A DNA stretch of 64,000 nt, from positions 64,001 through 128,000 of the IMG/VR virus record IMGVR_UViG_3300017700_000931; one strand, given 5' to 3'. The position numbers and the translations under genes were made by a program. Below are positions 2,284 through 53,300 of this stretch, piece after piece (the stretch's first letter is position 1; every line of letters starts with the position of its first letter). Source of the DNA: a virus. Lineage: Duplodnaviria; Caudoviricetes. The notes below the pieces were generated by a model. That model was not told the DNA's origin, searched no databases, and saw nothing but the letters and a program-made list of their open reading frames with translations.

Positions 2284-2688
2284 TTATTTCTTAGGTTCTA
2301 AACCAAGAAGGTGTATTACTATTTCACCAATTGTTTTTCCATCATTAAGGTCTTTATAAACCTTATCCATTCTTATTCGCATTTCTTTGAAATTAGGAAT
2401 AGATGTTGTTTTAACTTCTGATGAAAATAATTTATCAGATAAAACCTTTTTAGCATTATTCCCATGGTGTTCAACATAGTGATTGATATTACCTGAGAAT
2501 ACTGTTGTATCTTTACCATTAGATACAATACTAATAAAATAATCTTCACCATTTACATTATAGGTGAAAACCTTTTGAAAGTAATTGTTGTCAGTGATAA
2601 ATAAATGCTTAGCTGTTTGTTTAAGATAAGCAATAATATTTGATTTAATTTGTACCTTTTTTTCTTGTGCGTTTTCAATTGTTTCCAT
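2284..2688 (-). CDS. Hypothetical protein
   Basis: 134-aa ORF on the dominant coding strand; no recognised motif. Confidence 0.75.
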   Translation of the reverse strand: METIENAQEKKVQIKSNIIAYLKQTAKHLFITDNNYFQKVFTYNVNGEDYFISIVSNGKDTTVFSGNINHYVEHHGNNAKKVLSDKLFSSEVKTTSIPNFKEMRIRMDKVYKDLNDGKTIGEIVIHLLGLEPKK

Positions 2689-2770: not shown

Positions 2771-2797
2771 TTAAGGTGGCTTTACTTTCTATTTCAT
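2771..2797 (-). other. Minigene ATG AAA TAG AAA GTA AAG CCA CCT TAA (MK*KVKPP*)
   Basis: Read directly from sequence, 20 nt downstream of tRNA-Cys with an A/T-rich leader (TATAAATT-ATG); translation is inferred only. Confidence 0.45.
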
Positions 2798-2817
2798 AAT
2801 TTATAACATTTATGTTG

Positions 2818-2888
2818 AGGTAGGGGGCAGAATCGAACTACCATATCACGACTTGCGGTCGTGCACTTAACCAATCAGTCACCCCACC
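2818..2888 (-). tRNA. tRNA-Cys(GCA)
   Basis: Acceptor GGTGGGG/CCCTACC, T-loop GTTCGATT, anticodon arm CACGA-CCGCAAG-TCGTG, discriminator U73 (Cys identity); CCA not encoded. Confidence 0.85.
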
Positions 2889-2893
2889 TTTTA

Positions 2894-3154
2894 TTACCAA
2901 ATATTGGCTATAATTTCAGTATTTATTATTTCAATTTTTAATTTGGCTCTAAATTTAATACTACCCTTGGTGTGTGGATTTTCTGGTGTTTCTTTAGTAG
3001 AGAATCCAACTCCGGGAGACACATCAATATGATTAACATAATGCGTCAGACCCATATGTTTAATCACCCACATTGGTATCGTATTATCTTCGAGATTTTT
3101 CTTATTAAAGTGAAAAATTATTTCTCGTCTTTTTGTGTCATCAATGATTAACAT
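2894..3154 (-). CDS. Hypothetical protein
   Basis: 86-aa ORF whose start overlaps the Pth2-like stop (coupled). Confidence 0.7.
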   Translation of the reverse strand: MLIIDDTKRREIIFHFNKKNLEDNTIPMWVIKHMGLTHYVNHIDVSPGVGFSTKETPENPHTKGSIKFRAKLKIEIINTEIIANIW

Positions 3155-3501
3155 GATAATACCCCTTTCCCCATTAATGGTAATGAACTAGTTAATTTAC
3201 GACTAGCCTCAGATGGGGCCAATGCAATTGCTGTTAATTCATTATTGATATCCGGTTCCCTAAATGGTGTTATCTTAATATAACGTTCAGCTGCTTTTAG
3301 AATGAATTGTTTTAACTCATCTTCATTAGCTACGGTTAGGAAAATTAAATAATTGGAATTTGTGTGCCAGTCTTTGGCCTCCGTTGGATGTCCATGTTGG
3401 AAATCGATTGCAGCATGAGCTGCTTGTACTGCTTGATAAGCAAGTGGTAAATCACGTCTAGTGATGACAATTAATTTGTTATTTTCAATCTAATTTTTCA
3501 T
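3148..3501 (-). CDS. Peptidyl-tRNA hydrolase PTH2-family protein with an in-frame TAG at codon 4
   Basis: Not in ORF track. MKN*IENNKLIVITRRDLPLAYQAVQAAHAAIDF...WHTNSNYLIFLTVANEDEL...FREPDINNELTAIALAP fits the PTH2 pattern (K.V.V.R.DL, Q.AHA, V..E.EL, T.LA..P). TAG at 3490-3492. Confidence 0.82.
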
Positions 3502-3522
3502 ACTTCTACTTTTTATTTTTAG

Positions 3523-3588
3523 TGCTCTTGGAGAGAATCGAACTCTCTGACACGGGTTTTAGAGGCCACCGTCACATCCTACAAGAAC
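3523..3588 (-). tRNA. Non-canonical 66-nt tRNA-like RNA with a putative CUA (amber) anticodon
   Basis: Acceptor GTTCTTG/CAAGAGC, perfect T arm GAGAG-TTCGATT-CTCTC, loop CTCTAAA; D arm reduced or absent and anticodon stem bulged. Confidence 0.65.
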
Positions 3589-3597
3589 AAATATGTT

Positions 3598-3720
3598 AGA
3601 CCTCTCACAATCCTTTACTCTTGGGTCTCAGGTCTTGCGGACCTGTGAGTTTATTTCTTTCGAAACAAAACGGCTACTGGGACAGGAATTTGGCATCACA
3701 GTAACTTGTACCTCTCTCAA
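3598..3720 (-). ncRNA. Structured leader RNA of the tRNA(CUA)-pth2 operon
   Basis: Follows promoter at 3729. Stems GTTACTG/CAGTAGC, a GAAA-tetraloop hairpin (3649-3671), CAGGTC-CGCAA-GACCTG, and CTCACA/TGTGAG crossing AGACC/GGTCT. Confidence 0.45.
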
Positions 3721-3776
3721 ACACATTACAAAGATAAGAACTTTATTTGAATTGTCCAAACATTTTTGCAATTATT

Positions 3777-4400
3777 TTAAAAAAAAGATAAAACTTTTTC
3801 TTGAGTCGCAATATCTACACTATCTAACATGTCTTCAATTTTATGTTTGACTGCCGGATTATTCTTTTTATAAATTGTTTCGTCTTTAATGTCTACCATC
3901 CATTTAACCCCATTGATTATTATGATTGGTTCATCTTTTACATTATGTGTTCTAGTTTTAGCTAATTGCTCAGCAAATTTATCAATATTTTTAATGGATA
4001 AATCAACATTTAACCTTTTTGCATTATACTCTGGGTTTTTGGTTTGATAATCCATAGCTAACATGAATGTATCGATTTTATTATCCCTAACAATTACCCA
4101 AAATTGATTACCAATAGAACCCTCAATTTTATAATATGGGTTACCCCTGAAAAGTTCAAAATATTGTGATTTGGGATTGGCTTTGAATTCACCTAAAAAT
4201 ATCACATATGATTTATTCTTGGGAAAATCAATATTTTCAATTTTTTTTAAGGTTGAAAAAATGGAACCCTTAATAGTATTGGGTAAGTCTTCGTCTGACA
4301 TCTTAGATATCCTATCCCCAACCCTATCAAGGGTATGAGCATCAACATCTGCTTCCGGCAACAAACTTTCTCTTAATATTTTTCTAATAAACCATTTCAT
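3777..4400 (-). CDS. Hypothetical late protein (N-terminal ILRESL motif)
   Basis: ORF track 3777-4418; ATG 4400 preferred because it follows the TATTTAT motif at 4406-4412. Confidence 0.75.
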   Translation of the reverse strand: MKWFIRKILRESLLPEADVDAHTLDRVGDRISKMSDEDLPNTIKGSIFSTLKKIENIDFPKNKSYVIFLGEFKANPKSQYFELFRGNPYYKIEGSIGNQFWVIVRDNKIDTFMLAMDYQTKNPEYNAKRLNVDLSIKNIDKFAEQLAKTRTHNVKDEPIIIINGVKWMVDIKDETIYKKNNPAVKHKIEDMLDSVDIATQEKVLSFF

Positions 4401-4420
4401 TGATAATAAATATATCAAAA

Positions 4421-4445
4421 AACCCTTAGCGACTAGCTAAGGGTT
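4421..4445. terminator. Hairpin terminator
   Basis: AACCCTTAGC-gacta-GCTAAGGGTT with adjacent A tract. Confidence 0.65.
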
Positions 4446-4469
4446 CTATCTTATTTATTAATTTTATGA

Positions 4470-4976
4470 TTACTTGACTAGTATTTCACCTAATCTTAAT
4501 ACTCTTTCTTTAAATTCTTCGTATGTCCCATTATTAGGTACAATGATATCAGCCATGCTGATATCGATATCGAATGAATCAGATGATTCTAGTGGTAATC
4601 TATCAGATGCATCGACCCAGATAATCAATTTAAATAAATTTTGTTTTTTACACTCCTTAATCTCTTCACCACTTCTCATACCAACATAACAATCAGCTTG
4701 TTTTAGAATACTCTTAGCTAATCTTGCTCTATCATCTTTATTGTAATCACAAATAAGATTATGCCATTCAGCTCTATGATTTACTCTATCTTCAAAACAC
4801 TCTTCTGGTGAGGTATAACCATATTGCTCCTTTAGTGTGTCATACAGAAATATTTCTGAAGCGGCAACTGAAGAAGATTTATATTTAAACCCATAATGTT
4901 CATTTAGAATTTCGGCAAATGTATCCTTTCCGTGTCTAGCGTGGCCCAATATTAAATATTTTTTATCCATTTTCAT
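4470..4976 (-). CDS. Deoxynucleoside monophosphate kinase-like P-loop protein
   Basis: GHARHGKDT P-loop after a hydrophobic strand, and a DIIVPNNGT tail. Start trimmed to after the promoter at 4987. Confidence 0.7.
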   Translation of the reverse strand: MKMDKKYLILGHARHGKDTFAEILNEHYGFKYKSSSVAASEIFLYDTLKEQYGYTSPEECFEDRVNHRAEWHNLICDYNKDDRARLAKSILKQADCYVGMRSGEEIKECKKQNLFKLIIWVDASDRLPLESSDSFDIDISMADIIVPNNGTYEEFKERVLRLGEILVK

Positions 4977-5027
4977 CAATTTTTTACAAAGATACGAGAA
5001 TTTATTTTCACTCACAAGTTTAAAACA

Positions 5028-5052
5028 GAAAAGGACCCATTGGGTCCTTTTC
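5028..5052. terminator. Hairpin terminator
   Basis: GAAAAGGACCCA-T-TGGGTCCTTTTC right after the RF1-like stop. Confidence 0.7.
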
Positions 5053-5054
5053 AA

Positions 5055-5733
5055 TTATTTTAAAAGCTGAATTTTTCCTCTTAGGATATCTTTCAATTTG
5101 GCAGTTTTATTAGTAATATGGTCAACTACGATATCATCCTTTACACGATATGTTCTACGTTTATCACCACGATTACCAACCCCAATCTGATTTCTACGTT
5201 CTTTAACCTCTTCTTGGTCATGTCCGGTTTTATAAAACGTATTAACACGTAGTGTTATTTCCTTAAAGGCTGCTTCTTTATTTTTATGTTGGTCTCGGCC
5301 ATCACGAACCACTCTGATACCTGTTGCATTATGTGTCATGATAACACACGAATCAGTAGTATTTTTATGTTGACCGCCACTTCCAGTTCCTCTAGTAAAT
5401 TCAATACGGACTTCATCGTGTCTGATTTCGACATCCTTATATTGTGGTTTATCTAAAATTGCTACTGTGATTGATGAAGTTTGAATACGACCCTTCTTTT
5501 CTGTTGGAGGGATACGTTGCCACCTATGGTTGCCTACTTCATTGTTAAATATTTTTTTTACACCAGACCCGCTAAAGGCATAGACAGACAAATCCTTCTC
5601 TGTCTTCAACTAACATTCAGTTAATGTTGTTAATCTTCGCTGTTTTGATGTAGATATCTCTCATATCTCCCACCAATAACTTAGCATCTTTGCCACCTTC
5701 GGCATCTCTGATTTCTAAATAAATCGTTTCCAT
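5055..5733 (-). CDS. prfA-like: RF1-like class I peptide release factor lacking domain 1; needs TGA readthrough (5617-5619) and a +1 frameshift at CTT TAG C (5577-5571); about 225 aa
   Basis: Frame 1 gives LEIRDAEGGKDAKLLVGDMRDIY (cf. RF1 LEVRAGTGGDEAALFAGDL). The +1 frame gives SGSGV...EVGNHRWQRIPPTEKKGRIQTSSITVA (PxT motif) and TGSGGQHKN (GGQ). Confidence 0.88.
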
Positions 5734-5765
5734 CGTTTCTTGGTTTTAGGAACTTGTTATAAAAA

Positions 5766-5789
5766 AAAATGGAACCGAAGTTCCATTTT
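5766..5789. terminator. Hairpin terminator closing the ncRNA/tRNA transcript
   Basis: AAAATGGAAC-cgaa-GTTCCATTTT with an A tract. Confidence 0.65.
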
Positions 5790-5856
5790 AATGTTTCAGA
5801 ATCGTTTTTTTTTCTTATCCATAGAAGTTTTTAACTGCTGTATCGATTCTTCTTGT

Positions 5857-6720
5857 GGGGATGTGAGGGCTTTCTCCTCAAACTACGTATTACACATAGC
5901 ATCCCCAGTTAAGTCGAGCCTTGTTCACAAATACATTCTGGTGGGAATGTATTTGAGTAGATGTGCTCACCCACCTCCTGACGAGGTCTGCATCGACTTA
6001 GTGGTTGTAATAGGACCTTCCCCTATAGAACACCATTAAAGATGTTTACAACCTTGTTTGAAAATGTGGGGGCTTTCTCCCCAAACCATACATCTCTAGT
6101 ATAGCATCTCCATTTGTAGCGGGGGGTGGAATTGAACCACCGACCTCAAGGTTATGAGCCTTGCGAGCTACCACTGCTCTACCCCGCAATATCTTGTTCT
6201 TCGTAATGGAGCTTCCACCATTAACCCAGCTCTTAAACTGGCGAAGAATTTTTACGCTGAAATTCAAACATTTCATTGTAATATCTGACAGGTTAGTTTT
6301 TTTAACGCTTTAGAATTTGAGTCTAATGTTTTAAATGTTTGCTGTATCTAACCATTTACGCTGTGGCCCGTCGAAGATTCAACTTCAATCTATATTGCTA
6401 TAGAACGGACCTTGTGTGGGGAAGAAGGGGCTCTAACCCTTTCTACCTTTCAGTGTGCTCAAATAATATTAGTTACCTAATGAGTACTTTCCTCGTTTAC
6501 ACTACTTCCCCGTATAATAATTTTGTCCAGAATGATGGTTTAAGCTTTTTTACATGTGCTTAGCACCATGGCAGTTATTCAATTCGGATTACCGTGGGGG
6601 AACCTATGTACTAAAACCCCTTTTCTTCTTAACTGTAGATTTGTTTTTGTTTTACGGTTTGCCGTAATCATTCTTCTGACAATTTTTTAATCTCAATAAA
6701 TAAAAGAACGCTTTCTTTGT
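5857..6720 (-). ncRNA. Large modular structured RNA with embedded tRNA-Met (GOLLD/ROOL-like architecture or new family)
   Basis: No credible ORF; GC-richer than flanks; eight or more closed helical domains joined by short A/C-rich linkers between promoter 6734 and terminator 5766. Confidence 0.7.
6117..6188 (-). tRNA. tRNA-Met(CAT), initiator-like
   Basis: TGCGGGG/CCCCGCT with a 1:72 mismatch, anticodon arm CAAGG-CTCATAA-CCTTG, T-loop GTTCAATT; only two G-C pairs next to the anticodon loop. Confidence 0.9.
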
Positions 6721-6797
6721 TTTAAATATAATACAAAGATACGAAAGTTATTTTAAATAGCAAGCTTTTTTTGAAATATTTTTAAAAAAAATTTATT

Positions 6798-7007
6798 TTA
6801 ATTCAAAAGTAGTTTATTTAAAACACACGCAAACCTATATGAATTAGGGCTTTCAGCCTTTAATATCGCTAATTCTCTTAATGTCCCCATTTCGATAAAT
6901 TTATAGTGCTCAATAATTTCCGGCTGAGTTTCTTGAATGATATTTCTATATCGAACATAAAATTTGTACCTATCAATTACCTCTCTAATCTTAAATGTTT
7001 TTTTCAT
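6798..7007 (-). CDS. Hypothetical protein
   Basis: 69-aa ORF coupled to the upstream gene. Confidence 0.6.
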   Translation of the reverse strand: MKKTFKIREVIDRYKFYVRYRNIIQETQPEIIEHYKFIEMGTLRELAILKAESPNSYRFACVLNKLLLN

Positions 7008-7296
7008 CCTTTAACGATTGTTCATATTCTTCTTTATCTTCTTTCATTTCCATGTGTTCTTTTATTGGATTTATAATCCAAGCAAATATCAATAAAATGA
7101 GTATAAATACTAACCAATAGGCAACGCCAATTAAATATAGCCAGAAAGCCCAACCGTTATATGAGCTGGTATATGATAATCTAGCATCTATGCGCCAAAA
7201 AATTAAAAACCAGACGAAAGCTAAGACCATCCTACCTATGTTAGTTAACACTAACCATTTAGGGATTAGCTTAATGATGTCAATCAATTTTTCCAT
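6991..7296 (-). CDS. Small membrane protein (2 predicted TM helices)
   Basis: Two hydrophobic stretches and a charged C-terminus; TATTTAT motif upstream. Confidence 0.7.
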   Translation of the reverse strand: MEKLIDIIKLIPKWLVLTNIGRMVLAFVWFLIFWRIDARLSYTSSYNGWAFWLYLIGVAYWLVFILILLIFAWIINPIKEHMEMKEDKEEYEQSLKDEKNI

Positions 7297-7333
7297 GTTT
7301 ATAAATATGGAAAAATTTAGGAAAAAACGTAAA

Positions 7334-7555
7334 TTACATTGATTTTTGTGGGTCTCCGTCTAAAACTTCAACAATAATAAAAATACCATGTTTTTTTAGT
7401 ATGTGATGAACAACAAAAACTACCTTATAATATTTTTTATCTTCCAAATAAATAAATTCTCCAGAACGGGGAATATGTTTGATTTTGATTAGTGGGATAA
7501 TCGTCTTCCAATCCTTATCTAAGATTGAAACACTATATCTATTGAATAGCCCCAT
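7334..7555 (-). CDS. Hypothetical protein
   Basis: 73-aa ORF overlapping the peptidase stop. Confidence 0.65.
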   Translation of the reverse strand: MGLFNRYSVSILDKDWKTIIPLIKIKHIPRSGEFIYLEDKKYYKVVFVVHHILKKHGIFIIVEVLDGDPQKSM

Positions 7556-8351
7556 AATTGTAGGTTTTATTACCCAATTCTATTATTGTGCTGGCACCAA
7601 GATTGATGGCTTTTTGAACATAACTTAATACTACGAATTCATGACTAGAATGCATATCCATGTATCCGGCAAAATAATTTATACAACAAACAGGATAGTT
7701 TTTTTTCAATTCTTTGACATCTGTGAATGGGTCTCTAATATTTGGTGCCGACATGTTATAAACGTCCCAAGTTGGTTTTAATATTTTAGCGAATGCATCA
7801 TCAAATAACTCAATACCACCACAAACTCTTGAAATCCAATTATCGGTTGGTGCATCGAACTGAATAAAGTAACCAACATCTAATAACCATTCTTCTTTTT
7901 TAGCAAAAGCAGAACCTCGACAACCGATTTCCTCTTCAACAAAAAAGGCACCCTTGATTGTTTTAAAATTAAGAATTAATGATAATGCAATGAATATTCC
8001 GGCTTTGTCATCACCACCACAACCTGTATTAACTTCCATTCCATTTGGTTTGAATTTAGTGGCATATAAAATATCACCATATTCACCATTAATTTCTTTT
8101 ATATTCAATTTGGAGCTCGACTTAACCATCAATACTTGGTCACTGTGTACTGTATCCATATGTGCAACCACACAAGGGTAAGATTCACCATCGAGTAATT
8201 CACCTTTTTTCATGAATATATTACCCTTTTCATCTTGTTTGACATCAATATTATTATCGATAGCCCAATTAATTAAAAATTCTCTAACTGATTCCTCTTT
8301 AGTAGAACAGCTTGGTATTGATAATATTTCTTTCAGTAATTCCTTATTCAT
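7539..8351 (-). CDS. M20/M28-family zinc peptidase
   Basis: AHMDTV, GGDDKAG, EEIGCRGS, QFD and C-terminal H metal ligands; ends in TAG. Confidence 0.85.
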   Translation of the reverse strand: MNKELLKEILSIPSCSTKEESVREFLINWAIDNNIDVKQDEKGNIFMKKGELLDGESYPCVVAHMDTVHSDQVLMVKSSSKLNIKEINGEYGDILYATKFKPNGMEVNTGCGGDDKAGIFIALSLILNFKTIKGAFFVEEEIGCRGSAFAKKEEWLLDVGYFIQFDAPTDNWISRVCGGIELFDDAFAKILKPTWDVYNMSAPNIRDPFTDVKELKKNYPVCCINYFAGYMDMHSSHEFVVLSYVQKAINLGASTIIELGNKTYNYGAIQ

Positions 8352-8466
8352 CTAGCAAAGATATGGGTTTTTTTATTAAAAACCAAATTTATCTGACTTT
8401 ACTATTTATTTTGGTTTGAAATGATATTTATTTAATAGATAACATATTACTAAAACTATAGAAATC

Positions 8467-8559
8467 ATGGGTTGTGGATGTAAAAAGAAAAAAACTGTCA
8501 TTGTAACTACTAACACTAATACAAGCACAGATACAAGTGGAACAAATGGTGGAAATTAA
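8467..8559 (+). CDS. 30-aa small protein MGCGCKKKK...
   Basis: Not in ORF track. TATTTAT motifs upstream (about 8402-8432); the stop lies inside a perfect hairpin at 8544-8571. Confidence 0.55.
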   Translation: MGCGCKKKKTVIVTTNTNTSTDTSGTNGGN

Positions 8560-8571
8560 TTTCCACCATTT
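8544..8571. terminator. Bidirectional terminator
   Basis: AAATGGTGGAAAT/ATTTCCACCATTT inverted repeat between convergent genes. Confidence 0.7.
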
Positions 8572-8578
8572 TTTTTAA

Positions 8579-8932
8579 TTAAACATTATCAGCGTCGCTT
8601 GGTTTATCAGTATTGAATGTCTCTGTTACTGATTTTGACGATTGGGTGGTTGTAGTTTGTTGTTTATTTGACTTCATGACTTTAATCAACTCAATGAATT
8701 TACCTCCGAATACATAACCCCCAAATAATGTCATAGCATATTCTAATGCATCAACAATCATTTTGAAATTTTCCATTTGAATATCGTTTTTTACGATTCC
8801 AGAATACGTTAAGATTCCTAATGTGATATAGTAAGCGATTACTGACCAAAATAAATAAACTCTACCTTGTGAGTATACTCCATTTTCTTTAAGGATATCC
8901 TTAAATAATTTTACATTCCATTTCTTTTCCAT
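8579..8932 (-). CDS. Two-TM membrane protein (possible holin-like)
   Basis: Two hydrophobic helices and a polar tail; start MEKKW follows a TATTTAT motif. Confidence 0.6.
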   Translation of the reverse strand: MEKKWNVKLFKDILKENGVYSQGRVYLFWSVIAYYITLGILTYSGIVKNDIQMENFKMIVDALEYAMTLFGGYVFGGKFIELIKVMKSNKQQTTTTQSSKSVTETFNTDKPSDADNV

Positions 8933-9054
8933 CCTTAATTTGTTTAAAGATAAATACTCTGGAAAACAAAAAAAGCCCACCGAGTGTGAGCTTTTATGTC
9001 CTAGTTAAAGGTCCAATTTCTGACTTAGCGAATTTAAGCCAGAAGCAGTTTGCG

Positions 9055-9434
9055 TGGAGCTGGAGGGAGTCGAACCCTCGTCCTAATCTATTCTTCAATC
9101 ATTTTCTACGTGCTTAGTTCATTTTTTCTTTTCGAACAAAATATCAAATTTATTTACAACCCCATTTGCAAAGTTGCCCAGCCTTTTTATTTACATCACA
9201 GGTTAGGTCCTAGTGATGGGTTTCGTGAGTTTCCTCAGTTTTCCTATTGCATCAATTAGGCTGCAACAGCCTCTCCAGCAACAACTTCTACAGAAGCGTT
9301 AGCAAGGAAGTTTTCGGAAATATTGAAAATATTGCCATTTGAACTTTTGTAAAATATTGTTTTAACTGCTTATTCACATCGCAGTGCATGCTTACAATTT
9401 ACGACCATAGACAGTCAAATCCAAGGTCAGCCCC
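9055..9434 (-). ncRNA. ssrA: tmRNA
   Basis: 5' GGGGCTGACCTTGGATTTGAC and 3' GGGTTCGACTCCCTCCAGCTCCA form an Ala acceptor with G3-U70. Tag ORF 9336-9256: GNIFNISENFLANASVEVVAGEAVAA*. Confidence 0.95.
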
Positions 9435-9507
9435 AATAAAAAAAGAACGTTAGTCTTAATAACTATCACAAAGATACTAAAAAAATTCTAAATGACAAGC
9501 TTTTTTG

Positions 9508-10236
9508 TTATTTTTTTCTTTCAATAACATTATCAACAATACCATATGATACCGCTTCTTCTCCAGTTAACCACATATCTCTAGTTGCGTCATTTAAAAC
9601 CTCTTTTGGGTCTTTATCGCAATAAGAACCAAGCAATCTAAACAATTCATCATTGTATTTTTCTGCTTGTTGTTGGTTAATTCTAGTATCTTGTACGTTA
9701 CCTTGACTACCATGTGAAACTTGATGTAACATTACCTTTGAATGTGGTAAAATTAATCGTTTACCTTTGGTTCCATTACCCAATAAAATTGAACCCATTG
9801 ATGCGGCCATACCAGTACAAATAGTTGATACATCGCAATGAATATAATTCATAGTATCAACAATTGATAATCCTGACTTAACAGAACCACCCGGAGTGTC
9901 AACATACACTGTAATATCATCTTTTTTACCTAGACTTTCCAAATATAATAATTGGGCTTGGACCACGGTGCTCATTTGGTCATTCACTGGACCAGCTAGC
10001 CAAAGTGTTCTATCCATCATCAATCTCGAAAAGATATCAATCATGGTAACCTCTAATTTATTTGGCTCCGGCACGTATGGTGTCATTGAGGCACCAACAT
10101 TCAATGTATTCACATTGTTATAAAGTGAGTCTTGTAATTTTTCCCAATAATGGAATTGAATACCGGATACACCCATATGATTTATTGCAAAATTTTTAAA
10201 ATCTGCATACCAATCGTAATTTCCTACTGCGTTCAT
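9508..10236 (-). CDS. clpP: ATP-dependent Clp protease proteolytic subunit
   Basis: IFSRLMMDR, TPGGSV, GMAASMG (Ser), MLHQ (His), RDMWL (Asp). Confidence 0.95.
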   Translation of the reverse strand: MNAVGNYDWYADFKNFAINHMGVSGIQFHYWEKLQDSLYNNVNTLNVGASMTPYVPEPNKLEVTMIDIFSRLMMDRTLWLAGPVNDQMSTVVQAQLLYLESLGKKDDITVYVDTPGGSVKSGLSIVDTMNYIHCDVSTICTGMAASMGSILLGNGTKGKRLILPHSKVMLHQVSHGSQGNVQDTRINQQQAEKYNDELFRLLGSYCDKDPKEVLNDATRDMWLTGEEAVSYGIVDNVIERKK

Positions 10237-11271: not shown

Positions 11272-12318
11272 TTATTCGACAACCCCTTCTTTGATTTTTT
11301 TTATTTTTTCTAGTAGTTCTTTTTCTTCATCAGAAATTTCGGTAGGATTATTAATATCAATTTCTAATAACATATCACCCCTAGACTCTGAATCGGGTAA
11401 TTTCATTCCCTTACCAACTATTCTAAGACTAGAACCCAATTTACTAAATTTAGGTACCGTCACCTTAATTAAACCACCCTCAATTGTATTCATATTAATT
11501 TTAGTACCCAAAATTACATCATAGTAATTCAATTTGATTTTACTTCTTAAATCATTTCCAACTCTAGTAAAATCTTTATGTGATGATTCACTGATAACAA
11601 TTATTAATTTCCCATAATCGCCATCCTTAATACCATGACCCATACCATTTAAAGTCAATCCATCACCATCTGCAATTCCATGTGGAATATCAACATCTAC
11701 CATAGCTTCTTGACTAGAAACACCATGACCATCACAATGATTACATTTTGTTTGATAAGAATTTCCGCTACCTAAACACTCAGGACAATCATTGATAGAT
11801 TGCATCATACCAAGTTGTGTTTGGACCACTTGGATTACTCTTCCTTGGCCCTGACATGTTTTACATTCGCCATGGCCGGAGCCACCTCTACCACCACAAG
11901 GTTCGCATTTAGTTAATCTACTGTATTTGAATTTTTTATTGACACCAGCATACATATCTTCCAATGTAAGTGATACATTTAATCTCAAATCATTACCACG
12001 TCTAACCTTCATTGAGTGTTTTCTACCACCAAATCGTTCTTGGAAGTGTCTCATGACATCTTCCATGGTATCAGACATACTAGGGCCAGCATTTTTAAAA
12101 TTATGACCTAATCTATCGTATTTTGATTTACTACTTGGGTCTGATAAGACTTCGTATGCTTCAGCAATTTCTTTAAATTTAGCCTCTGCTTCAACATCAT
12201 TAGGATTGGTATCTGGGTGATACTTTTTAGCCAATTTACGATATGATTTCTTGATATCATCAGCTGAAGCTGATTTATCTACACCTAGAATTTCATAATA
12301 GTCGTTTTTTTGAGCCAT
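11272..12318 (-). CDS. dnaJ: DnaJ chaperone
   Basis: J-domain with HPD, four CxxCxGxG repeats, C-terminal domain. Confidence 0.95.
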
Positions 12319-14789: not shown

Positions 14790-16220
14790 TTAAATTGAAA
14801 CTGCCGAGTAACGGTCAGCACCAATAATATTCATCATCATTGAATAAGGGTTTAAATCCTTACCAGACAATAGACTTGTCAATAATGCCGGACTGAATCC
14901 AGATACTAACGCAGTTCCATTTTTATCGTGTTGAACTGGTTTATTTTTATCACCATGTGATTTAATATTCCAGAATACGATTTTTGGTAAAACGTAACCA
15001 GCTTCAGTATACATGTTTTCAATCATTTTAATGGCTGTTGCATTATAACGAGTACATGAATCAAATTCCATATCACTAAGGATTAGAATCATTGTTGGCA
15101 TTTCTTCAGCCGGAACTGAATGTTTAACCGCTTGGGTTAGAACTGTCTTAAATGCAGCTTCCAAATTAGTATTCATATCCCATTGTGCTCTGGATAATTG
15201 ATTACATCTTTCGGACAATTTACCTTTAAGAATTTGCAATTCTGGACGAGCCGAGAATGTCAAGAACGCATCTTTGAACAAACCAACGTTTCTCTCAGAG
15301 ATATACAATCCAAGTGATAATGCAACATCCATTGCACTAACATTTGGGTTATTACCTGCCGCAGTACACATTGAACCAGATACATCCACCATTGGTAGAA
15401 CTCTTTCTTCATTTCCAGACATATAGTTTGGAAGTGCGTTCCATTGTGCATCAGCTCCCCTAGCATTACCATTTCTAAGGTTCTTAATAATATCATAAGG
15501 GTAGACAGCACCAGCATTAATCTTTGTTTCACCTTTTTCAAGTGAATTCAAATACTCAGTGAATCTAGCATGGTCATTCTTACCAAATGCTTTCATGTAA
15601 TCAGACATCGCTTTAGATGGAACGTGAGCATAATTAATAGCTTGCCATTCTTTAGCACACATTAATTGTTCTACGGTTTTTGACAACCCGACAATCAATT
15701 TTCTATAGTCCTTTGGAGCTAACTTAAGATAAGTTCTAATTGCATTAGCTTGTTTTTTGTTAGCACGATTTTTTCCATTACCTCTTGGGCACCATTTAGC
15801 GCACAATTGATTTCCGGCTGACAAACCTTTAGAGATTAATTCTAGTGCATCCTTTTCCAATTCTGTACCAATTAATTCTACAACATCTGACCATCTTCCA
15901 TATTCTGGAATTAGGTGAATGTTTTTTCTCATGACTTCAGTATGGTTATTAGCCAAGTGTGTCATGATATCAATTGCTGTTTGTCTTTCACCAGCACCAC
16001 CTCTAACATCTCTTACCCAGAATAAGATTTTCATTGCAGTCAATGCATCTTCTGAATAAGCTTTTATGAAGGCGTTAATTTTTCTTTGTTTTTCAGCACC
16101 CCTTACGGCACCAATCATTGAAAATAAATCCACACAGTGGTTAAGGGTTGAGGAATTTGTAGACATTCCATTTTGAGTCACTGAATCCTCAGTTCTCATA
16201 GCATTTAATAATTTGCTCAT
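14790..16220 (-). CDS. DUF2828 / TROVE(Ro60)-like protein with C-terminal vWA domain
   Basis: RDVRGGAGER, EYGRW.D, AKWCPR, vWA MIDAS DVSGSM, ILSDMEFD, FWN and SGFSP. Confidence 0.88.
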   Translation of the reverse strand: MSKLLNAMRTEDSVTQNGMSTNSSTLNHCVDLFSMIGAVRGAEKQRKINAFIKAYSEDALTAMKILFWVRDVRGGAGERQTAIDIMTHLANNHTEVMRKNIHLIPEYGRWSDVVELIGTELEKDALELISKGLSAGNQLCAKWCPRGNGKNRANKKQANAIRTYLKLAPKDYRKLIVGLSKTVEQLMCAKEWQAINYAHVPSKAMSDYMKAFGKNDHARFTEYLNSLEKGETKINAGAVYPYDIIKNLRNGNARGADAQWNALPNYMSGNEERVLPMVDVSGSMCTAAGNNPNVSAMDVALSLGLYISERNVGLFKDAFLTFSARPELQILKGKLSERCNQLSRAQWDMNTNLEAAFKTVLTQAVKHSVPAEEMPTMILILSDMEFDSCTRYNATAIKMIENMYTEAGYVLPKIVFWNIKSHGDKNKPVQHDKNGTALVSGFSPALLTSLLSGKDLNPYSMMMNIIGADRYSAVSI

Positions 16221-32818: not shown

Positions 32819-35188
32819 TTATTTTATGAGAATCTTCGATATATTGTTGGTTTTTTTAACCGTAATGATGTTATCACCCCAATCCTTCACATAATCAATG
32901 TGTGATATCAAAAACACAATGTCATACATGTCTTTTATCTTATCAAACAGTGGTTTTATCTTTTCTAAGTTCTCAGAAGCAACAGCCCCAAATGGTTCAT
33001 CAAATGTTATGAAATTGGGCATCGGTAAATGAGATATTTTACCTAAAACACAACGTAGTGCTATACTGGAGATAGTTTTTTCAACCCCACTACCGGATTT
33101 CAATTTTTTATCAACCCCATCCTTAGTTAAGGTAAATTCAACATCATTTTTAGCATTTATGTTCAATTCTATGTTGAAATCACAAACATCTTCCATAAGT
33201 CGGTATAGTTCAGAATTAATAATTGGTAATACTGACCTTAGAATCAATTTACTAATACCCTTTTTACCTATCATCTCAACATAGATTTTAAATAACCTAT
33301 CTACCTCTAATTCTTTCTTTATAACCTCAATTAATGATGTTTTTTCGGTAATATTTGCTTCATTAGTAGCAATATTACCTTCGGTTGTCTGTATTGAACG
33401 AATAAATGTTTCCTTCTCTCGTTCTTTTACAACGATGTTGGTTTTTACCACTTCAATTTCGGCATCAATCGCTCTATTATGGTTAATTGCACCTTCATTG
33501 TCCTTATATTTTTTTAAATCCAGCTTTTTTTCCTTTATTTTGTTCCTCAAAGCTCCAATTTCTACTTCGGCACGGTCTTTTTGTAACTCAAGTTTGTTTT
33601 TTTTGTCGACTTTTGATTTATTTTCAGTCATTAAATTAATTTTGGCTTGAATATCTAATAATTTTGTGTTTCCGGCAGCATATTCTAGGTCTAATTTTTC
33701 AATTTTAGCTTCTTCAAGCTTAATTTCAACACTATGGTCAACATCTTCAAGTGCTCTTTTACATGTTGGGCATATCTCACCATTTTTTAATTGGTCAACC
33801 ATCTTAACATGCCCATTTTTTTCAATCCTATTAGCATTTAATTGTGCATCCAGCGCATTATACTCCTTATTCAAATTAAAATACGACACCTCATCATAGG
33901 TAACGTTACCAATTTCAGCAATTTCTTTTACGTATTCTTTAATTGAATCAGAAAACTTTATACCAGTATCAGTTATGGTTTTAATTTCTTTTTCAATGTT
34001 AGTTGGGTTGAGCTGTGTTATTGTTACATCGATAACTTTCTTATCTGCTATGAATCCGTCTTTTTTAGTATTCAAATTATCAATTTCTACTTTATTTGCA
34101 TCCAATTGTTGTTTCTGTGTTATCAATAACGCTTTGTTCGTTTCAATTACATTACCATGTTCTTCAATTTCAATCTTTAATGTTGCAATGTTATATTGAT
34201 TCGATTTCATGGTTTTAATGTACTCGTTATGCATTTTACGAGCAATTTCTTCCTTCATTTCAATAACCTCGATACCAATAAATTTAGTTAATAATTTTCC
34301 ACTCTCAGTCGGTGTTGTATCGATAAGGTTTTCTAAATTTTTACCAGTGGTTAAAATCGTAATATCAAAATCTTCTTCATCACCAATGGTTTTTTTAATT
34401 TCCAAAGTAGTTGCAATTGCATCTTCTTCTTCCATTTCTTCTTCAGAACCATCCGGCATTAATTTATAATAATTTAATTTATTCTTAACGGTATAACCAC
34501 CAACTCTTTTTCCAGTTCTAGTTAATATTCTTTCGATGATAACATCTTTATCATCATAATTGAGCATACCCCTTACGACTGTTTTATTTTCATCAGTGAA
34601 TGTATTGAATACCTCATCATTTTTATCAGTTTTACTAGTTTTACCGAATAATAAGAATTTAATCGCATCCACACTAAAAGTAGTCTTACCGCCTTGATTG
34701 GCTGGTACAGAATTGATGGTTGTTAAACCTCTTAATTTACCAAAATTAACGTAATTTTCTTGACCATAACATAAAAAATTATTGACTGCTAACCATTTAA
34801 TCTCCCATTTTCTATGATTGATTTCTGTTAAATCTACATTCAATGACCCATTGACTTTTTCATCCAATCTAACTATTCGCTCAAAATCAACATCCTTACC
34901 TTCTCGTGCAATCCATTCTTTCATTAATTCTCGTTGATAATTAATGTCCATAATGTTATCAATACCAGCCCCAGTGATTTCAATAACATTACCGTTTTTA
35001 TCAATTTTAGTTGGCCGGAAGACTACATTAATATTGTTTTTTTGTACCCCGTATTTTCTGGCAAAATGTGATTGTACACGATTTCTAGCTTCTCTAGAGT
35101 AATTCTCTGGTCTATCATCCCAATAAACTTTAAGTTTTGCATATGTTGGGATTTGTAATTTTTTTGTTTGTGTTATATCATTCTCCAT
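32819..35188 (-). CDS. SbcC/Rad50/gp46-like ATPase
   Basis: Walker A NQGGKTT, coiled coil with CPTC zinc hook, signature KSGSGVEK, Walker B ITFDEPF, ISH. Confidence 0.92.
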   Translation of the reverse strand: MENDITQTKKLQIPTYAKLKVYWDDRPENYSREARNRVQSHFARKYGVQKNNINVVFRPTKIDKNGNVIEITGAGIDNIMDINYQRELMKEWIAREGKDVDFERIVRLDEKVNGSLNVDLTEINHRKWEIKWLAVNNFLCYGQENYVNFGKLRGLTTINSVPANQGGKTTFSVDAIKFLLFGKTSKTDKNDEVFNTFTDENKTVVRGMLNYDDKDVIIERILTRTGKRVGGYTVKNKLNYYKLMPDGSEEEMEEEDAIATTLEIKKTIGDEEDFDITILTTGKNLENLIDTTPTESGKLLTKFIGIEVIEMKEEIARKMHNEYIKTMKSNQYNIATLKIEIEEHGNVIETNKALLITQKQQLDANKVEIDNLNTKKDGFIADKKVIDVTITQLNPTNIEKEIKTITDTGIKFSDSIKEYVKEIAEIGNVTYDEVSYFNLNKEYNALDAQLNANRIEKNGHVKMVDQLKNGEICPTCKRALEDVDHSVEIKLEEAKIEKLDLEYAAGNTKLLDIQAKINLMTENKSKVDKKNKLELQKDRAEVEIGALRNKIKEKKLDLKKYKDNEGAINHNRAIDAEIEVVKTNIVVKEREKETFIRSIQTTEGNIATNEANITEKTSLIEVIKKELEVDRLFKIYVEMIGKKGISKLILRSVLPIINSELYRLMEDVCDFNIELNINAKNDVEFTLTKDGVDKKLKSGSGVEKTISSIALRCVLGKISHLPMPNFITFDEPFGAVASENLEKIKPLFDKIKDMYDIVFLISHIDYVKDWGDNIITVKKTNNISKILIK

Positions 35189-50477: not shown

Positions 50478-51380
50478 TTAAATGTTTGTAATAGTATTAA
50501 ATGACTTCAAGAAATCAATACCAGTTCTTGGTTCCCTAACTTCAAATAATGGTTTACCAGTAAATTGGTCTTTAATTTCAAATAGATTAAACTGTTTGTA
50601 AATTTGATTTTCAAAGTTATATATTGTATAAATACCATCTTCAAGACTTTTAGTTTGTGGACCAAATAATCCATACGCAATTGTTTCAAAGTCATGTTCT
50701 ACTATTTCTATTTCAACCATAACCGGATTGAAAAATGTGTTAGTAATAATAACATTTTGATTAGGTTCACCAATAAATGGTAAAACATTTGGTTTCACAT
50801 TAGATACTGAGTTTGGTGTAACAGTGGCAAAGCTTAATGATGAATTATCATTGAATCTATATCTAATAGCTTTTTGACTAGTATTAGTCAAATTTTGATT
50901 TACTGGTTCAGCTTTATTGTTTGATGTAATTACAGTAAAAAAATTATTAATTTTTTCATTATTAATTGGGCTCAAATATTCAACTCTATAACCGATTAAA
51001 TTATTGTTTTGAAATTTACTAACAAATGTTGCATCAACTTCTGATAAATCAAATACTAATCCCTTAACATTTGGGAATGCTGATAGTACACCACAATCTA
51101 CTATTCTAGTTCTGATTTCGATAGGTTTAATCATCAACGTATAAAATCCTTTTGCTGAAAATATTGTTGCTGGTAAATTTAATGTATACATACCACCAAA
51201 CACTTCATTTGTATTGGTACTATTCGGATTTGAAACTCTTTGTAAAATTTCAAATGAATCTAATTTCGTTAATGTTGTATCACCAACTCTAGACCTAGAT
51301 GGTGTATAATGCATAAATATTTCTACATCACTTGGTGATACATCCGCTGGTCTTAGTGTCCCATATGTTCCATTTGCCAT
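50478..51380 (-). CDS. Virion structural protein
   Basis: 300-aa ORF within the baseplate block. Confidence 0.7.
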   Translation of the reverse strand: MANGTYGTLRPADVSPSDVEIFMHYTPSRSRVGDTTLTKLDSFEILQRVSNPNSTNTNEVFGGMYTLNLPATIFSAKGFYTLMIKPIEIRTRIVDCGVLSAFPNVKGLVFDLSEVDATFVSKFQNNNLIGYRVEYLSPINNEKINNFFTVITSNNKAEPVNQNLTNTSQKAIRYRFNDNSSLSFATVTPNSVSNVKPNVLPFIGEPNQNVIITNTFFNPVMVEIEIVEHDFETIAYGLFGPQTKSLEDGIYTIYNFENQIYKQFNLFEIKDQFTGKPLFEVREPRTGIDFLKSFNTITNI

Positions 51381-51398
51381 ATTCTATTCTTTTATTTT

Positions 51399-51545
51399 TT
51401 AATGTGATTCTTCACCACTTTTTATGTATTTTTCAATCTCCTCTAAGTAATAATTTCTTTCATATTCTTCTAAGGAATTTATTTGAGAAATTGTCATTTG
51501 GTAATGTTTAACCAATAAGTAATTCTCATATAAAATTTTTTTCAT
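51399..51545 (-). CDS. Small protein, possibly gp51-like baseplate hub assembly factor
   Basis: Not in ORF track; MKKILYENYLLVKHYQMTISQINSLEEYERNYYLEEIEK resembles the L..H..S..E..M...ER.YY pattern. Confidence 0.5.
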   Translation of the reverse strand: MKKILYENYLLVKHYQMTISQINSLEEYERNYYLEEIEKYIKSGEESH

Positions 51546-51549
51546 TCAA

Positions 51550-52413
51550 TTAACTTTTTACAATATTATAAAACCCATTACCAAATCGTTCCAAGTGTTC
51601 AAGACTTTCAACTTCAGATAATTTCAAATGTTTTTCCATAACAGTTGTCGCACCCCTATCTATAAATACATCGCTAAAGACTTCTGGGTCATTAATTATT
51701 CCCATTAAATATTCTTCCTTCGTAATAGCTGATAATGAGGAGTTTGTTGTGTTCCAACCCTCAGCTTTAAATTGTAATGTGGCTATTGATTTTGTTGCCT
51801 TAATTAAACCATTGGCCACACCAACACCAACATCTAAAATATTCTTATTGTCTTTATATAATAAACCAGTTGTTTGTCCGGTGGTACCCAAAAATGCATC
51901 ATTATTAGCATCAAATGTATATTTCTTCGCTAAATCAGCATCACTCATCAAAACTCTACTTACACCACTAATTGTTTGGTTATCATAATTAGTGTATACG
52001 TTTGCCTCAATATCAAATCCAACAATGTATGGATTTAATTTATTATAACTCTTCAATTCATTAATTCTAGGTTCCGTAGTAGCGGTTAAAACACTCCCAT
52101 AACTGTACCACTCACTTACATTCGCATTATCATGTCTGGTACATGCTGTAAAACCACTTAATATTACTGATGGTGGTAATGTACCCGACATAAATGGAAA
52201 AGTAAAACCACTTGTATTCAATTTATCAATCAAAATTGTGTAATCCGGTGTGATATTATTGAAATCAATATCAGTAAAAACACCCATATTATCAATTGTT
52301 TGAGTTAACATAATATTGACATAAAAAGTACTAGCAGTCATCAACCCATAAGTGGTATCTGAATTTCTACTAATTCCATTTTCTAATAATATAGTTCTTT
52401 TTATTACTTCCAT
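51550..52413 (-). CDS. Virion structural protein
   Basis: 287-aa ORF in the baseplate block. Confidence 0.7.
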   Translation of the reverse strand: MEVIKRTILLENGISRNSDTTYGLMTASTFYVNIMLTQTIDNMGVFTDIDFNNITPDYTILIDKLNTSGFTFPFMSGTLPPSVILSGFTACTRHDNANVSEWYSYGSVLTATTEPRINELKSYNKLNPYIVGFDIEANVYTNYDNQTISGVSRVLMSDADLAKKYTFDANNDAFLGTTGQTTGLLYKDNKNILDVGVGVANGLIKATKSIATLQFKAEGWNTTNSSLSAITKEEYLMGIINDPEVFSDVFIDRGATTVMEKHLKLSEVESLEHLERFGNGFYNIVKS

Positions 52414-53300
52414 TAAATCGCTTGTACTTGATATAATTCTAATGTTTGTATTCCACCAACTAGTGAAATATTGGTGGAATATGTTTCATCAATTTCATAC
52501 CACCATCCGGTATTATCTCTTTTTAATATATACTTCATATGAAGTTTACTGACTAAATTATCAATTGTTTGTGGTGTACCATCGGTTATTAATGCAATTG
52601 ATTCACCAGTTTTAGCATTATTCCAACTAGCTCTCATAAACAATTCCTTTGGTAGTGTATCACTAACATCATCTTTAAAATGATAAATGTTATAACCTTC
52701 AGATATTCCATCAGGAAATTTAATTGGGTCCTCAACAATAAATCTTATTGGAATGGATGTAATAGGGTTTGGTAAACCACCATTTGGAACTGGTGCTGGT
52801 AACGTTACTGGACCAAACGGTGTTGATGTAGTAATATTTTGAGTTAATGGTATAATGTCATTAACCGTTAATCTACAAAACAATGTCATAAATGACATTA
52901 AATTTTGATTGGTAGGAATATCTGAATCATAAAAACTTAATCTAAGAAATGACCTTTTAAATGAATTTTTACCAAATCTAACATCATTATATTCAAAATC
53001 TGCATGTGAATACATAGTTGTGCTCGGAAATGTTGGTCCGTCCAATAAATTTATTTTATAAATTAAACTATCAATTTGTACATTATTAGAATCTACTGGA
53101 ATAAATCTTACTTTTTCAAAATCAGTAATAGGATTAATCGAATTTTCAAGTTCTTTTTCAACAAAATCTCTTTCAACCACTTCAGCTTGGTCAATAGGTT
53201 GAAATGTCATAACAATTGGTATGTTAATAGTTGTAGCACTTCCACTACCTATTTTTATCTTATAACTATTAGCAGACATCTTGTGATTTTTTAACAACAA
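52413..53300 (-). CDS. Virion structural protein
   Basis: 295-aa ORF in the baseplate block. Confidence 0.7.
   Translation of the reverse strand: MLLKNHKMSANSYKIKIGSGSATTINIPIVMTFQPIDQAEVVERDFVEKELENSINPITDFEKVRFIPVDSNNVQIDSLIYKINLLDGPTFPSTTMYSHADFEYNDVRFGKNSFKRSFLRLSFYDSDIPTNQNLMSFMTLFCRLTVNDIIPLTQNITTSTPFGPVTLPAPVPNGGLPNPITSIPIRFIVEDPIKFPDGISEGYNIYHFKDDVSDTLPKELFMRASWNNAKTGESIALITDGTPQTIDNLVSKLHMKYILKRDNTGWWYEIDETYSTNISLVGGIQTLELYQVQAI

Follow-up and report, generated by a model that had tools for sequence, protein, structure and literature searches.

PrfH (RF-H), a release factor paralogue without domain 1, rescues damaged ribosomes together with RtcB2. Autoregulation of release factors by recoding is known for bacterial RF2 and for Mimivirus. 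The class-I release factor of Mimivirus and Megavirus requires one frameshift and one read-through event, which has been shown experimentally for Mimivirus and was then called unique, and Jeudy et al. proposed that this double recoding buffers the level of the factor (PMC3521657). Recoded phages carry code-change modules, in which a suppressor tRNA is combined with a release factor and an aminoacyl-tRNA synthetase (Borges et al., 10.1101/2021.08.26.457843), and PTH2 genes were already known in jumbo phages (Iyer et al. 2021, PMC7824862). Here, we analysed a phage locus with a stop-interrupted gene for an RF1-type release factor and an amber-interrupted gene for a Pth2-family peptidyl-tRNA hydrolase, located at positions 2771-10236 of a 64,000-nucleotide stretch of DNA, hereafter the window, which comprises bases 64001-128000 of the IMG/VR record IMGVR_UViG_3300017700_000931. 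This virus record has 362,532 bp, a G+C content of 32.7% and 57 tRNAs as detected by ARAGORN. Nearly all genes are oriented on the minus strand, as are all features for which window positions are given below.

We conclude that the region probably holds two separate, conserved stop-codon gates, one in the release-factor gene and one in the Pth2 module, situated among ordinary phage genes for translation and proteostasis (ClpP, transfer-messenger RNA (tmRNA), a peptidase, DnaJ and tRNAs). The original prediction, made from the sequence of the window, had joined these elements into a single ribosome-rescue regulon. The ClpP, tmRNA, peptidase, tRNA-Met, tRNA-Cys, Pth2, RF1-like gene, minigene and DnaJ that it listed were all found where it had placed them. 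Its proposal that the interrupting stops are programmed gates also held, as they recur at conserved positions in many phages amid variable neighbouring codons.

Identity of the release factor

The gene at 5055..5733 encodes an RF1-type release factor that lacks domain 1 and carries the PPT and GGQ motifs, with a conceptual product of 225 aa. Read from the ATG at 5733, it comprises 38 codons (PCRF positions 101-132), a TGA and a further 14 codons before a stop at CTT TAG C; past this site, the +1 frame encodes the remainder of PCRF, followed by the RF-1 domain and its GGQ. Translated through the UGA and with the +1 shift, the product aligned end to end with residues 111-340 of E. coli RF1 (135 bits). 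The NCBIfam scores were 187 bits for RF1, 94 bits for RF2 and 75 bits for PrfH, and in Pfam the RF-1 domain scored 78 bits, with PCRF covered at positions 101-132 and 156-194. The factor is not a full-length RF1: the 187 bits lie below the NCBIfam equivalog cut-off of 400, the match begins at model position 105, and most homologues have just 6-37 open codons before the first motif. Neither is it a PrfH, since TIGR03072 gave 74.8 bits against a cut-off of 166.65 and the PxT motif is present. PPT at the PxT position is invariant across the family and the flanking Gln and Thr are retained; from these residues, the best prediction is that the factor reads UAA and UAG. The 362-kb relative G007 has a partial second RF-like match (query residues 43-170; L153, IMGVR_UViG_3300042502_001233, 51266-52870) at a distance of about 3 kb from its gated RF1-like gene.

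Stop codons within the release-factor gene

The first putative gate of the gene is the in-frame UGA at codon 39 (5617..5619), followed by an A, and the second is CTT TAG C (5571..5577), a +1 frameshift site of the prfB type, at which the frame changes and beyond which the alignment is gapless once the shift is applied. A TGA at the position of the first gate occurs also in L004, L007, L008, L011-L013 and L015, and the CTT TAG C site is identical in 11 distinct relatives. A first set comprised 19 relatives from IMG/VR (48-72% identity) and four records of huge phages, and every member was interrupted within the same short region. The layouts comprised a TGA at codon 39/40, a TGA at codon 44/46, a TGA (TAG in three loci) at codon 52, and, two codons after codon 52, a shift site that reads CTT TAG C (the window, L005, L006 and L088) or CTT TGA C (L021). 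Some +1 sites of the family lie at a second, earlier position. One huge-phage copy at first appeared intact, and its short leader seems to be doubly gated by CTT-stop sites. In this copy (L003; LR756511.1, about 2792-2875, from a 595-kb phage), the gene seemingly opens with a Shine-Dalgarno sequence and an ATG, and two tandem +1 sites, TGT CTT TAA C and CGT CTT TGA C, were noted by eye before domain 2.

This pattern was found throughout the family. A profile search of IMG/VR yielded 167 RF1-like loci, of which 80 were fetched; 68 of these were distinct and 66 had a recognisable N-terminus. All 66 are gated, with no ungated homologue among them. Thirty-six carry in-frame stops (50 TGA and 5 TAG), and the remaining 30 carry a +1 shift that is always located at CTT-stop (TGA 17, TAG 12, TAA 1). 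No other disruption was found in the 66 genes. The base after the in-frame stop is A or C with a single exception, and U is nearly absent from this position; a U after the stop is a mark of strong bacterial terminators (PMC5289835).

The coding sequence is continuous through the gates. Nineteen homologues aligned without gaps across the gate region once the shift was applied, and the 37 codons upstream of the UGA showed a ratio of nonsynonymous to synonymous polymorphism (pN/pS) of 0.33, whereas the shifted frames gave 1.00 and 1.26. Close pairs gave pN/pS values of 0.23 before the first gate, 0.49 between the gates and 0.19 after them. The low pN/pS and the gapless alignment indicate that the pieces belong to one protein under selection, and purifying selection on the segment before the gates is thereby supported.

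Several ways of passing the gates were considered. Selenocysteine at the UGA is disfavoured because no hairpin follows it: in seven sequences, no conserved or unusually stable fold was present downstream. Re-initiation at the ATG that follows the UGA in the window was rejected, as relatives have ATA, CTG or AGA there. No clear Shine-Dalgarno stimulator was found at the canonical spacing from the shift site, and a hairpin ends 4 nucleotides (nt) upstream of the CUU. In Flavobacterium, CUU-UGA shifting occurs without a Shine-Dalgarno sequence at about 7%, and this element is dispensable for the prfB-type shift in Flavobacteriales (PMC10798248). By analogy with prfB, the simplest reading is that bypass of the gates would compete with termination. 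We infer actual read-through and frameshifting, and likewise the direction in which regulation would run. The suggestion that the RF1-like factor closes its own frameshift fits the minority of UAG and UAA gates, including the shift site of the window, to which such self-closing would be limited; most gates of the family are UGA and would instead sense RF2.

The amber-interrupted Pth2 gene and its linked tRNA

The Pth2 gene (3148..3501) has a UAG at codon 4 (3490-3492) and matched Pfam PTH2 with 29.9 bits against a threshold of 23. Its identity is supported by a family profile, which matched PDB 2zv3 (E 4e-9) and other archaeal and human Pth2 structures, and by an AlphaFold2 model (pLDDT 93.8), for which the top 14 Foldseek matches were all Pth2 structures (TM 0.72-0.81). 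Twelve residues are invariant in the family, among them R11, D13, Q19, H25, E78, D80, N83 and T86, and the copy in the window keeps all 12. Its open reading frame (ORF) begins ATG AAA AAT TAG ATT, and the next canonical in-frame start lies 90 codons past the TAG, near the end of the ORF. No other gene of the genome combines an early TAG with the lack of an alternative start.

The early stop is conserved, as shown by a survey of 65 homologous loci that form 22 clusters at 70% identity. In 20 of the 22 clusters, the gene opens with ATG, 1-7 variable codons and TAG, and one cluster has TAA. The leader peptides vary (MK, MT, MTH, MKDT, MKKPFYY and others) while the stop is constant, and the ORF is otherwise undisrupted in about 60 of the 65 loci. 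The base after the stop (n = 62 loci) is a purine in 60 (45 A and 15 G) and C in the other 2, and never T. Four homologues (L074, L079, L080 and L095, the last from the 735-kb phage LR756501) have extra internal in-frame TAGs and could stem from TAG-recoded phages.

A suppressor tRNA accompanies Pth2. In the 58 Pth2 flanks examined (+/-2.5 kb), ARAGORN detected 56 tRNA(CUA) genes with 38 distinct sequences, in many loci 45-200 nt upstream of the gene and behind a promoter box, and the Pth2 locus with TAA has a tRNA(UUA) in place of the tRNA(CUA). Pth2 and a tRNA(CUA) also occur together in cultured phages. In Tenacibaculum phage pT24 (L092, LC168164.1; 2462-3409), ATG AAA TAG precedes an ORF in which the Pth2 domain continues into a fused C-terminal domain (about 200 aa) that is shared with L077, and a tRNA(CUA) lies 2.5 kb upstream of Pth2. 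The gate was missed in this phage because the GenBank coding sequence, BPT24_235, is annotated from an ATG further downstream and lacks the Pth2 domain. In mycobacteriophage Myrna, a tRNA(CUA) follows the Pth2 gene at 130 nt.

Minigenes of the bar type in phage lambda are similarly short to these ATG-x-TAG leaders, which could in principle shed peptidyl-tRNA and in this way sense, or create, a demand for Pth activity, with Pth2 started by re-initiation after the stop. The leaders comprise 2-4 codons in most loci, the stop is followed by ATT in 42 of 62, and the gated gene itself encodes a peptidyl-tRNA hydrolase. We nevertheless regard this explanation as extremely improbable: the codon after the TAG is GTA, GTT, CTT, GGC or GGT, none of them a start codon, in 16 of the 62 loci, the leader has 7 codons in 8 loci, and neither the tight linkage to tRNA(CUA) nor the TAA/tRNA(UUA) case would be explained.

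In the window itself, a CUA tRNA had been predicted at this place. The site is orthologous to that of the relatives, nearly all of which have the tRNA linked to Pth2, but the copy is degenerate: the tRNA-like gene at 3523..3588, with a CUCUAAA loop (anticodon CUA), reached 23.7 bits in Rfam, where the gathering score is 29, whereas the orthologous genes of relatives are canonical at 47-65 bits. Its detection by ARAGORN required lowered thresholds (-ps90) or the mitochondrial mode. The D arm is reduced, the anticodon stem is weak and bulged, and, by eye, a deletion appears to have occurred between two ACGG repeats. A promoter-like box (3729-3736) and a hairpin leader of about 140 nt (3589..3736) precede it; among the loci seen, the leader occurs in this genome only, and it had no match in Rfam. 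An extra ORF that was not seen in relatives lies between this tRNA-like gene and the kinase-like gene described below. No second CUA tRNA was found in the genome with ARAGORN at lowered thresholds or by a pattern search, and comparison with the other tRNAs of the phage did not point consistently to one amino acid for the suppressor. With its tRNA(CUA) damaged, the amber module of this genome may be closed or decaying. Within the leader, a hairpin at 3640-3660 presents a CCGCAAG loop on a G+C-rich stem, the same loop as in the tRNA-Cys of the module.

This tRNA-Cys(GCA) (2817..2888; ARAGORN, and 48.2 bits in Rfam) has C33 in its CCGCAAG loop, where U33 is near-universal in tRNAs, and C33 is common to the module-linked tRNA-Cys of most relatives. 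A second tRNA-Cys of the genome (genome positions 33330-33416) has a normal loop and a long variable arm.

Downstream of the tRNA-Cys lies an amber-interrupted mini-ORF, M-K-UAG-K-V-K-P-P-stop (ATG AAA TAG ... TAA; 2771..2797), which is conserved in eight distinct relatives at 19-37 nt after the tRNA-Cys. The peptides of relatives include MM*ILRAPP, MK*ILNKPP, MR*IARAPT, MM*IARPPN and MK*IIRAPP, compared with MK*KVKPP in the window. Arg is encoded by AGA or CGA, and Pro by CCA, CCG or CCT; this retention of residues through synonymous codons indicates selection on the peptide. We take the RAPP of these peptides to be similar to a known arrest motif. Hairpins and then orf134 (2284..2688) follow the mini-ORF, which makes a leader role plausible, in which the mini-ORF may act on orf134. 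Homologues of orf134 stand after the mini-ORF in L006, L011 and L012, and orf86 (2894..3154), whose start overlaps the end of Pth2, is kept after Pth2 in L006, L011 and L013. Neither orf86 nor orf134 matched a family in Pfam or in further family and Atlas searches.

Genetic code and the fate of the gated genes

The genome uses the standard code. Under this code, long ORFs on one strand of the 64-kb window total 55.4 kb, and the 330 long minus-strand ORFs end with TAA (249), TGA (45) or TAG (36). Recoding of TAG or TGA as sense (code 4 or 15) was rejected, as ORF totals rise only by what is expected from spurious frames, and the genome shows no surplus of TAG- or TGA-joined ORFs. In relatives, TGA is a normal stop, since 42 alignments of conserved neighbour genes contained no in-frame TGA and 23 of 155 long ORFs of their neighbourhoods close with TGA.

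A local change of code, confined to a few genes and marking an initial stage on the way to a recoded phage genome, could still result if phage machinery decoded the gates constitutively, for example with the C33 tRNA-Cys as an opal reader besides the amber suppressor. Standard-code phages with suppressor tRNAs have been proposed as precursors of recoded phages (10.1101/2021.08.26.457843), Cys codons stand at the TGA positions in shift-type RF homologues, some of the Pth2 homologues have the extra internal TAGs described above, and an unusual tRNA-Cys accompanies the amber module. Such decoding is improbable in view of the near-complete genome G005 (318 kb, 96% complete), in which the RF gene has TGA and TAG gates, none of the 22 tRNAs is CUA or UCA, and the only tRNA-Cys has a normal U33. 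The C33 tRNA-Cys was thus rejected as the reader of the UGA gates. The genome of the window likewise has no UCA tRNA, as searched with ARAGORN at lowered thresholds and by pattern, so that the RF gates appear to be independent of a phage suppressor. Moreover, no recoding was found elsewhere in this genome or its relatives, and 30 members of the RF family frameshift, an event that no suppressor can serve.

The state of the tRNA(CUA), which resembles a deletion derivative, also bears on a different explanation, namely that the interrupted genes no longer function in this phage and are in decay, whether as pseudogenes or as remnants from an ancestor that was recoded. The extra ORF and long leader, absent from the relatives seen, and the lack of one near-invariant residue in the Pth2 of the window point the same way. 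We consider decay of this kind very improbable, as the family gates occupy a few fixed positions amid drifting codons, the sequences before and after the gates both have pN/pS values of 0.2-0.3, no further disruption occurs in 66 RF genes or in about 60 of 65 Pth2 loci, and the Pth2 of the window retains all of its invariant residues.

One regulon or two modules

The clustering of early TAGs noted in the original prediction was confirmed: three UAG-based signals lie within 2.8 kb although TAG is rare as a stop, ending 36 of the 330 ORFs. The order ClpP, tmRNA, tRNA-Met, RF1-like gene, kinase-like gene, tRNA(CUA), Pth2, orf86, tRNA-Cys is kept in at least seven relatives, and an RF1-like gene with a UAG shift site occurs together with the amber module in at least five contigs. 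These observations would suit one ribosome-rescue circuit of all elements, triggered by amber suppression or RF shortage and serving as a timer or as counter-defence.

The distribution of the modules makes a single circuit unlikely. A check of co-occurrence across huge phages, as the original prediction had proposed, found the components to be separable, the outcome that it had itself named as speaking against the regulon. The Pth2 module is present without the RF1-like gene in G003 (360 kb, 100% complete) and G004 (429 kb, near-complete), whereas G005 has a gated RF1-like gene and neither Pth2 nor a suppressor tRNA; the distance between the modules is 11 kb in G007 and 40 kb in G008. The 3 kb around the RF gene contained no tmRNA in distant huge phages, and tmRNA and ClpP are linked by synteny in one clade only, which may be mere inheritance.

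The arrangement of promoter-like sequences agrees with this. The box TATCTTTG occurs 14 times against 4.9 expected and fits the Bacteroidota -7 promoter consensus TAnnTTTG. Six intergenic copies are located between 2.2 and 9.5 kb, upstream of orf134, the tRNA-like leader, the kinase-like gene, the large RNA, the peptidase and the tmRNA, which indicates separate transcription units in a row and not one operon. A single regulon is therefore not supported, while the case for each module alone is much stronger than in the earlier proposal.

Proposed function of the two gates

For the two-gate reading, we propose the following mechanism. The RF1-type factor would be made only after read-through of the UGA at codon 39 plus a +1 slip at CUU UAG C. 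Its yield would rise when termination is slow, at the UGA if RF2 is short and at the UAG if RF1 is short, and would fall when RF1 activity, its own included, is high. The gene may thus act as a sensor and buffer of termination capacity. The second device would consist, in order, of a promoter, tRNA(CUA), Pth2 (UAG at codon 3-8), orf86, tRNA-Cys(C33), the mini-ORF (8-9 codons, UAG at codon 3, Pro-rich end) and orf134. Pth2 and the long mini-ORF peptide would be made only if the linked suppressor tRNA beats RF1, and the output would be a readout of the suppressor:RF1 ratio.

Several points weigh against this reading. Two serial gates in the RF gene would give a very low yield unless some factor boosts read-through, and because UGA, a codon that a factor of the RF1 type should not read, forms the majority of RF gates, simple self-regulation fails for the family as a whole. 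The covariation between stop and tRNA is weakened because the TAA/tRNA(UUA) locus has a later frameshift in Pth2. The Pth2 of the window lacks a near-invariant Glu and, given a tRNA(CUA) below threshold and no other CUA or UCA tRNA, may never be made. The locus counts overstate independence, as many loci share descent.

It is possible, although doubtful in our view, that both are portable phage devices that sense the state of termination. The RF factor would then be made when host RF2 and/or RF1 fail and would take over termination at stops that are mostly UAA, and the amber switch would license Pth2. Equally tentative is a role for the Pro-rich, arrest-type mini-ORF in licensing the downstream gene, with the U33-less tRNA-Cys as a further part. 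The devices might serve as sensor, timer or counter-measure to host attack on tRNAs, release factors or ribosomes, which we likewise advance with reserve.

Other features of the region

A P-loop deoxynucleoside monophosphate (dNMP)-kinase-like protein (4470..4976; PHROG 38514, 114 bits) is the syntenic neighbour of the RF1-like gene and is kept between it and tRNA(CUA) in relatives. Upstream of the RF1-like gene, the predicted large structured RNA around tRNA-Met was confirmed as an ORF-free stretch of 0.93 kb (5795..6725) with a fold z-score of -4.2 against shuffles, bounded by a promoter-like box and a terminator-like hairpin. It forms a chain of Y-shaped modules of two hairpins, two of which share a GATGCTAT...GGAGAAAGCCC core. 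It had no match in Rfam, and in 19 relatives only the tRNA part was conserved. The tRNA-Met (6116..6188) was detected by ARAGORN and scored 66.9 bits in Rfam. In three relatives (L008, at 4908-5631, L009 and L010), two tRNA-Met genes upstream of the RF1-like gene flank an ORF resembling a GIY-YIG homing endonuclease, and the second tRNA-Met has a length of 87-89 nt.

The tmRNA (9052..9434) matched the full length of Rfam RF00023 with 89.7 bits against a gathering score of 47; its tag apparently ends in ...AVAA (by eye), ARAGORN gave no tmRNA call, and a promoter-like TATCTTTG stands at 9469-9476. ClpP (9508..10236; Pfam CLP_protease 199 bits, NCBIfam ClpP 227 bits) lies upstream of the tmRNA in nine relatives, and its homologues gave no indication of the host. 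The peptidase (7539..8351) is M20/M42-like, with 25 bits for Pfam Peptidase_M42 and 129 bits for PHROG 4191 'peptidase'. DnaJ (11272..12318; Pfam DnaJ 97.6, DnaJ_C 113.9 and CXXCXGXG 45.8 bits) is situated beyond the 2771-10236 range. Elsewhere, the window encodes a TonB-dependent receptor with a Plug domain and a beta-barrel (220-2193), which is phage-encoded, and a 476-aa protein with DUF2828 and DUF7788 (14790-16220).

Comparison with known systems

A literature search found no paper on an RF gate or a Pth2 gate of phages, nor on a link between a Pth2 gate and a suppressor tRNA. The survey of Iyer et al. (PMC7824862) makes no mention of an early amber codon or of a linked suppressor tRNA in the PTH2 genes of jumbo phages. 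Annotation is affected as well, since gene callers truncate or split both the RF1-like and the Pth2 genes. Cultured systems are available in pT24, which has the gate and the tRNA, and Myrna, which has the Pth2-tRNA(CUA) pair, and genetics exists in Flavobacterium johnsoniae.

The amber module can be compared with the code-change modules of recoded phages. Both place a suppressor tRNA near a release factor, and in both, in-frame stops silence genes until suppression. In contrast to phages with such modules, the genome of the window is not recoded, and the neighbouring Pth2 gene and a mini-ORF are the only clients evident for its suppressor. The genes of the published modules keep to the standard code, whereas in the window the release-factor gene itself is gated. 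The amber-gated Pth2 is thus a concrete client for a suppressor tRNA in a standard-code phage, and may represent a first step to stop reassignment.

The release factor resembles PrfH in lacking domain 1 and keeping GGQ. It differs in its retained PxT motif and in its scores (187 bits for RF1 as opposed to 75 bits for PrfH, with a cut-off of 167), and no RtcB was seen nearby. One of the two nearest precedents is the factor of Mimivirus, which has two internal stops and requires the same pair of events as proposed here, read-through and a shift (+1 in the window). The Mimivirus factor is of the eRF1 type of eukaryotes and archaea and belongs to a virus of amoebae, while that of the window is of the bacterial RF1 type and belongs to a phage. 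The phage family moreover has many gate layouts, and bypass is predicted from sequence, as opposed to experimentally shown in Mimivirus.

The other is prfB. Its site, CUU UGA C, and that of the window are alike in the slippery codon, the stop in the A site, the following C and the +1 direction, and both gate a class-I release factor. The UAG in the window is a stop that an RF1-type factor should read, so that the feedback logic of prfB would carry over. The phage factor differs in being of the RF1 type without domain 1, with the site at codon 54 in domain 2 and not near codon 26 as in prfB, in having no evident Shine-Dalgarno stimulator, and in having a second gate (UGA) upstream. The shift stops of the family (TGA 17, TAG 12, TAA 1) are a further difference from prfB, and many members would sense RF2. 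The interchangeable UGA, UAG and UAA sites for read-through or +1 shifting offer a natural experiment on the sensing of termination capacity. Compared with bacterial RF2 and the factor of Mimivirus, gating extends here to a whole family of phage RF1-type factors, with no exception among the 66 loci.

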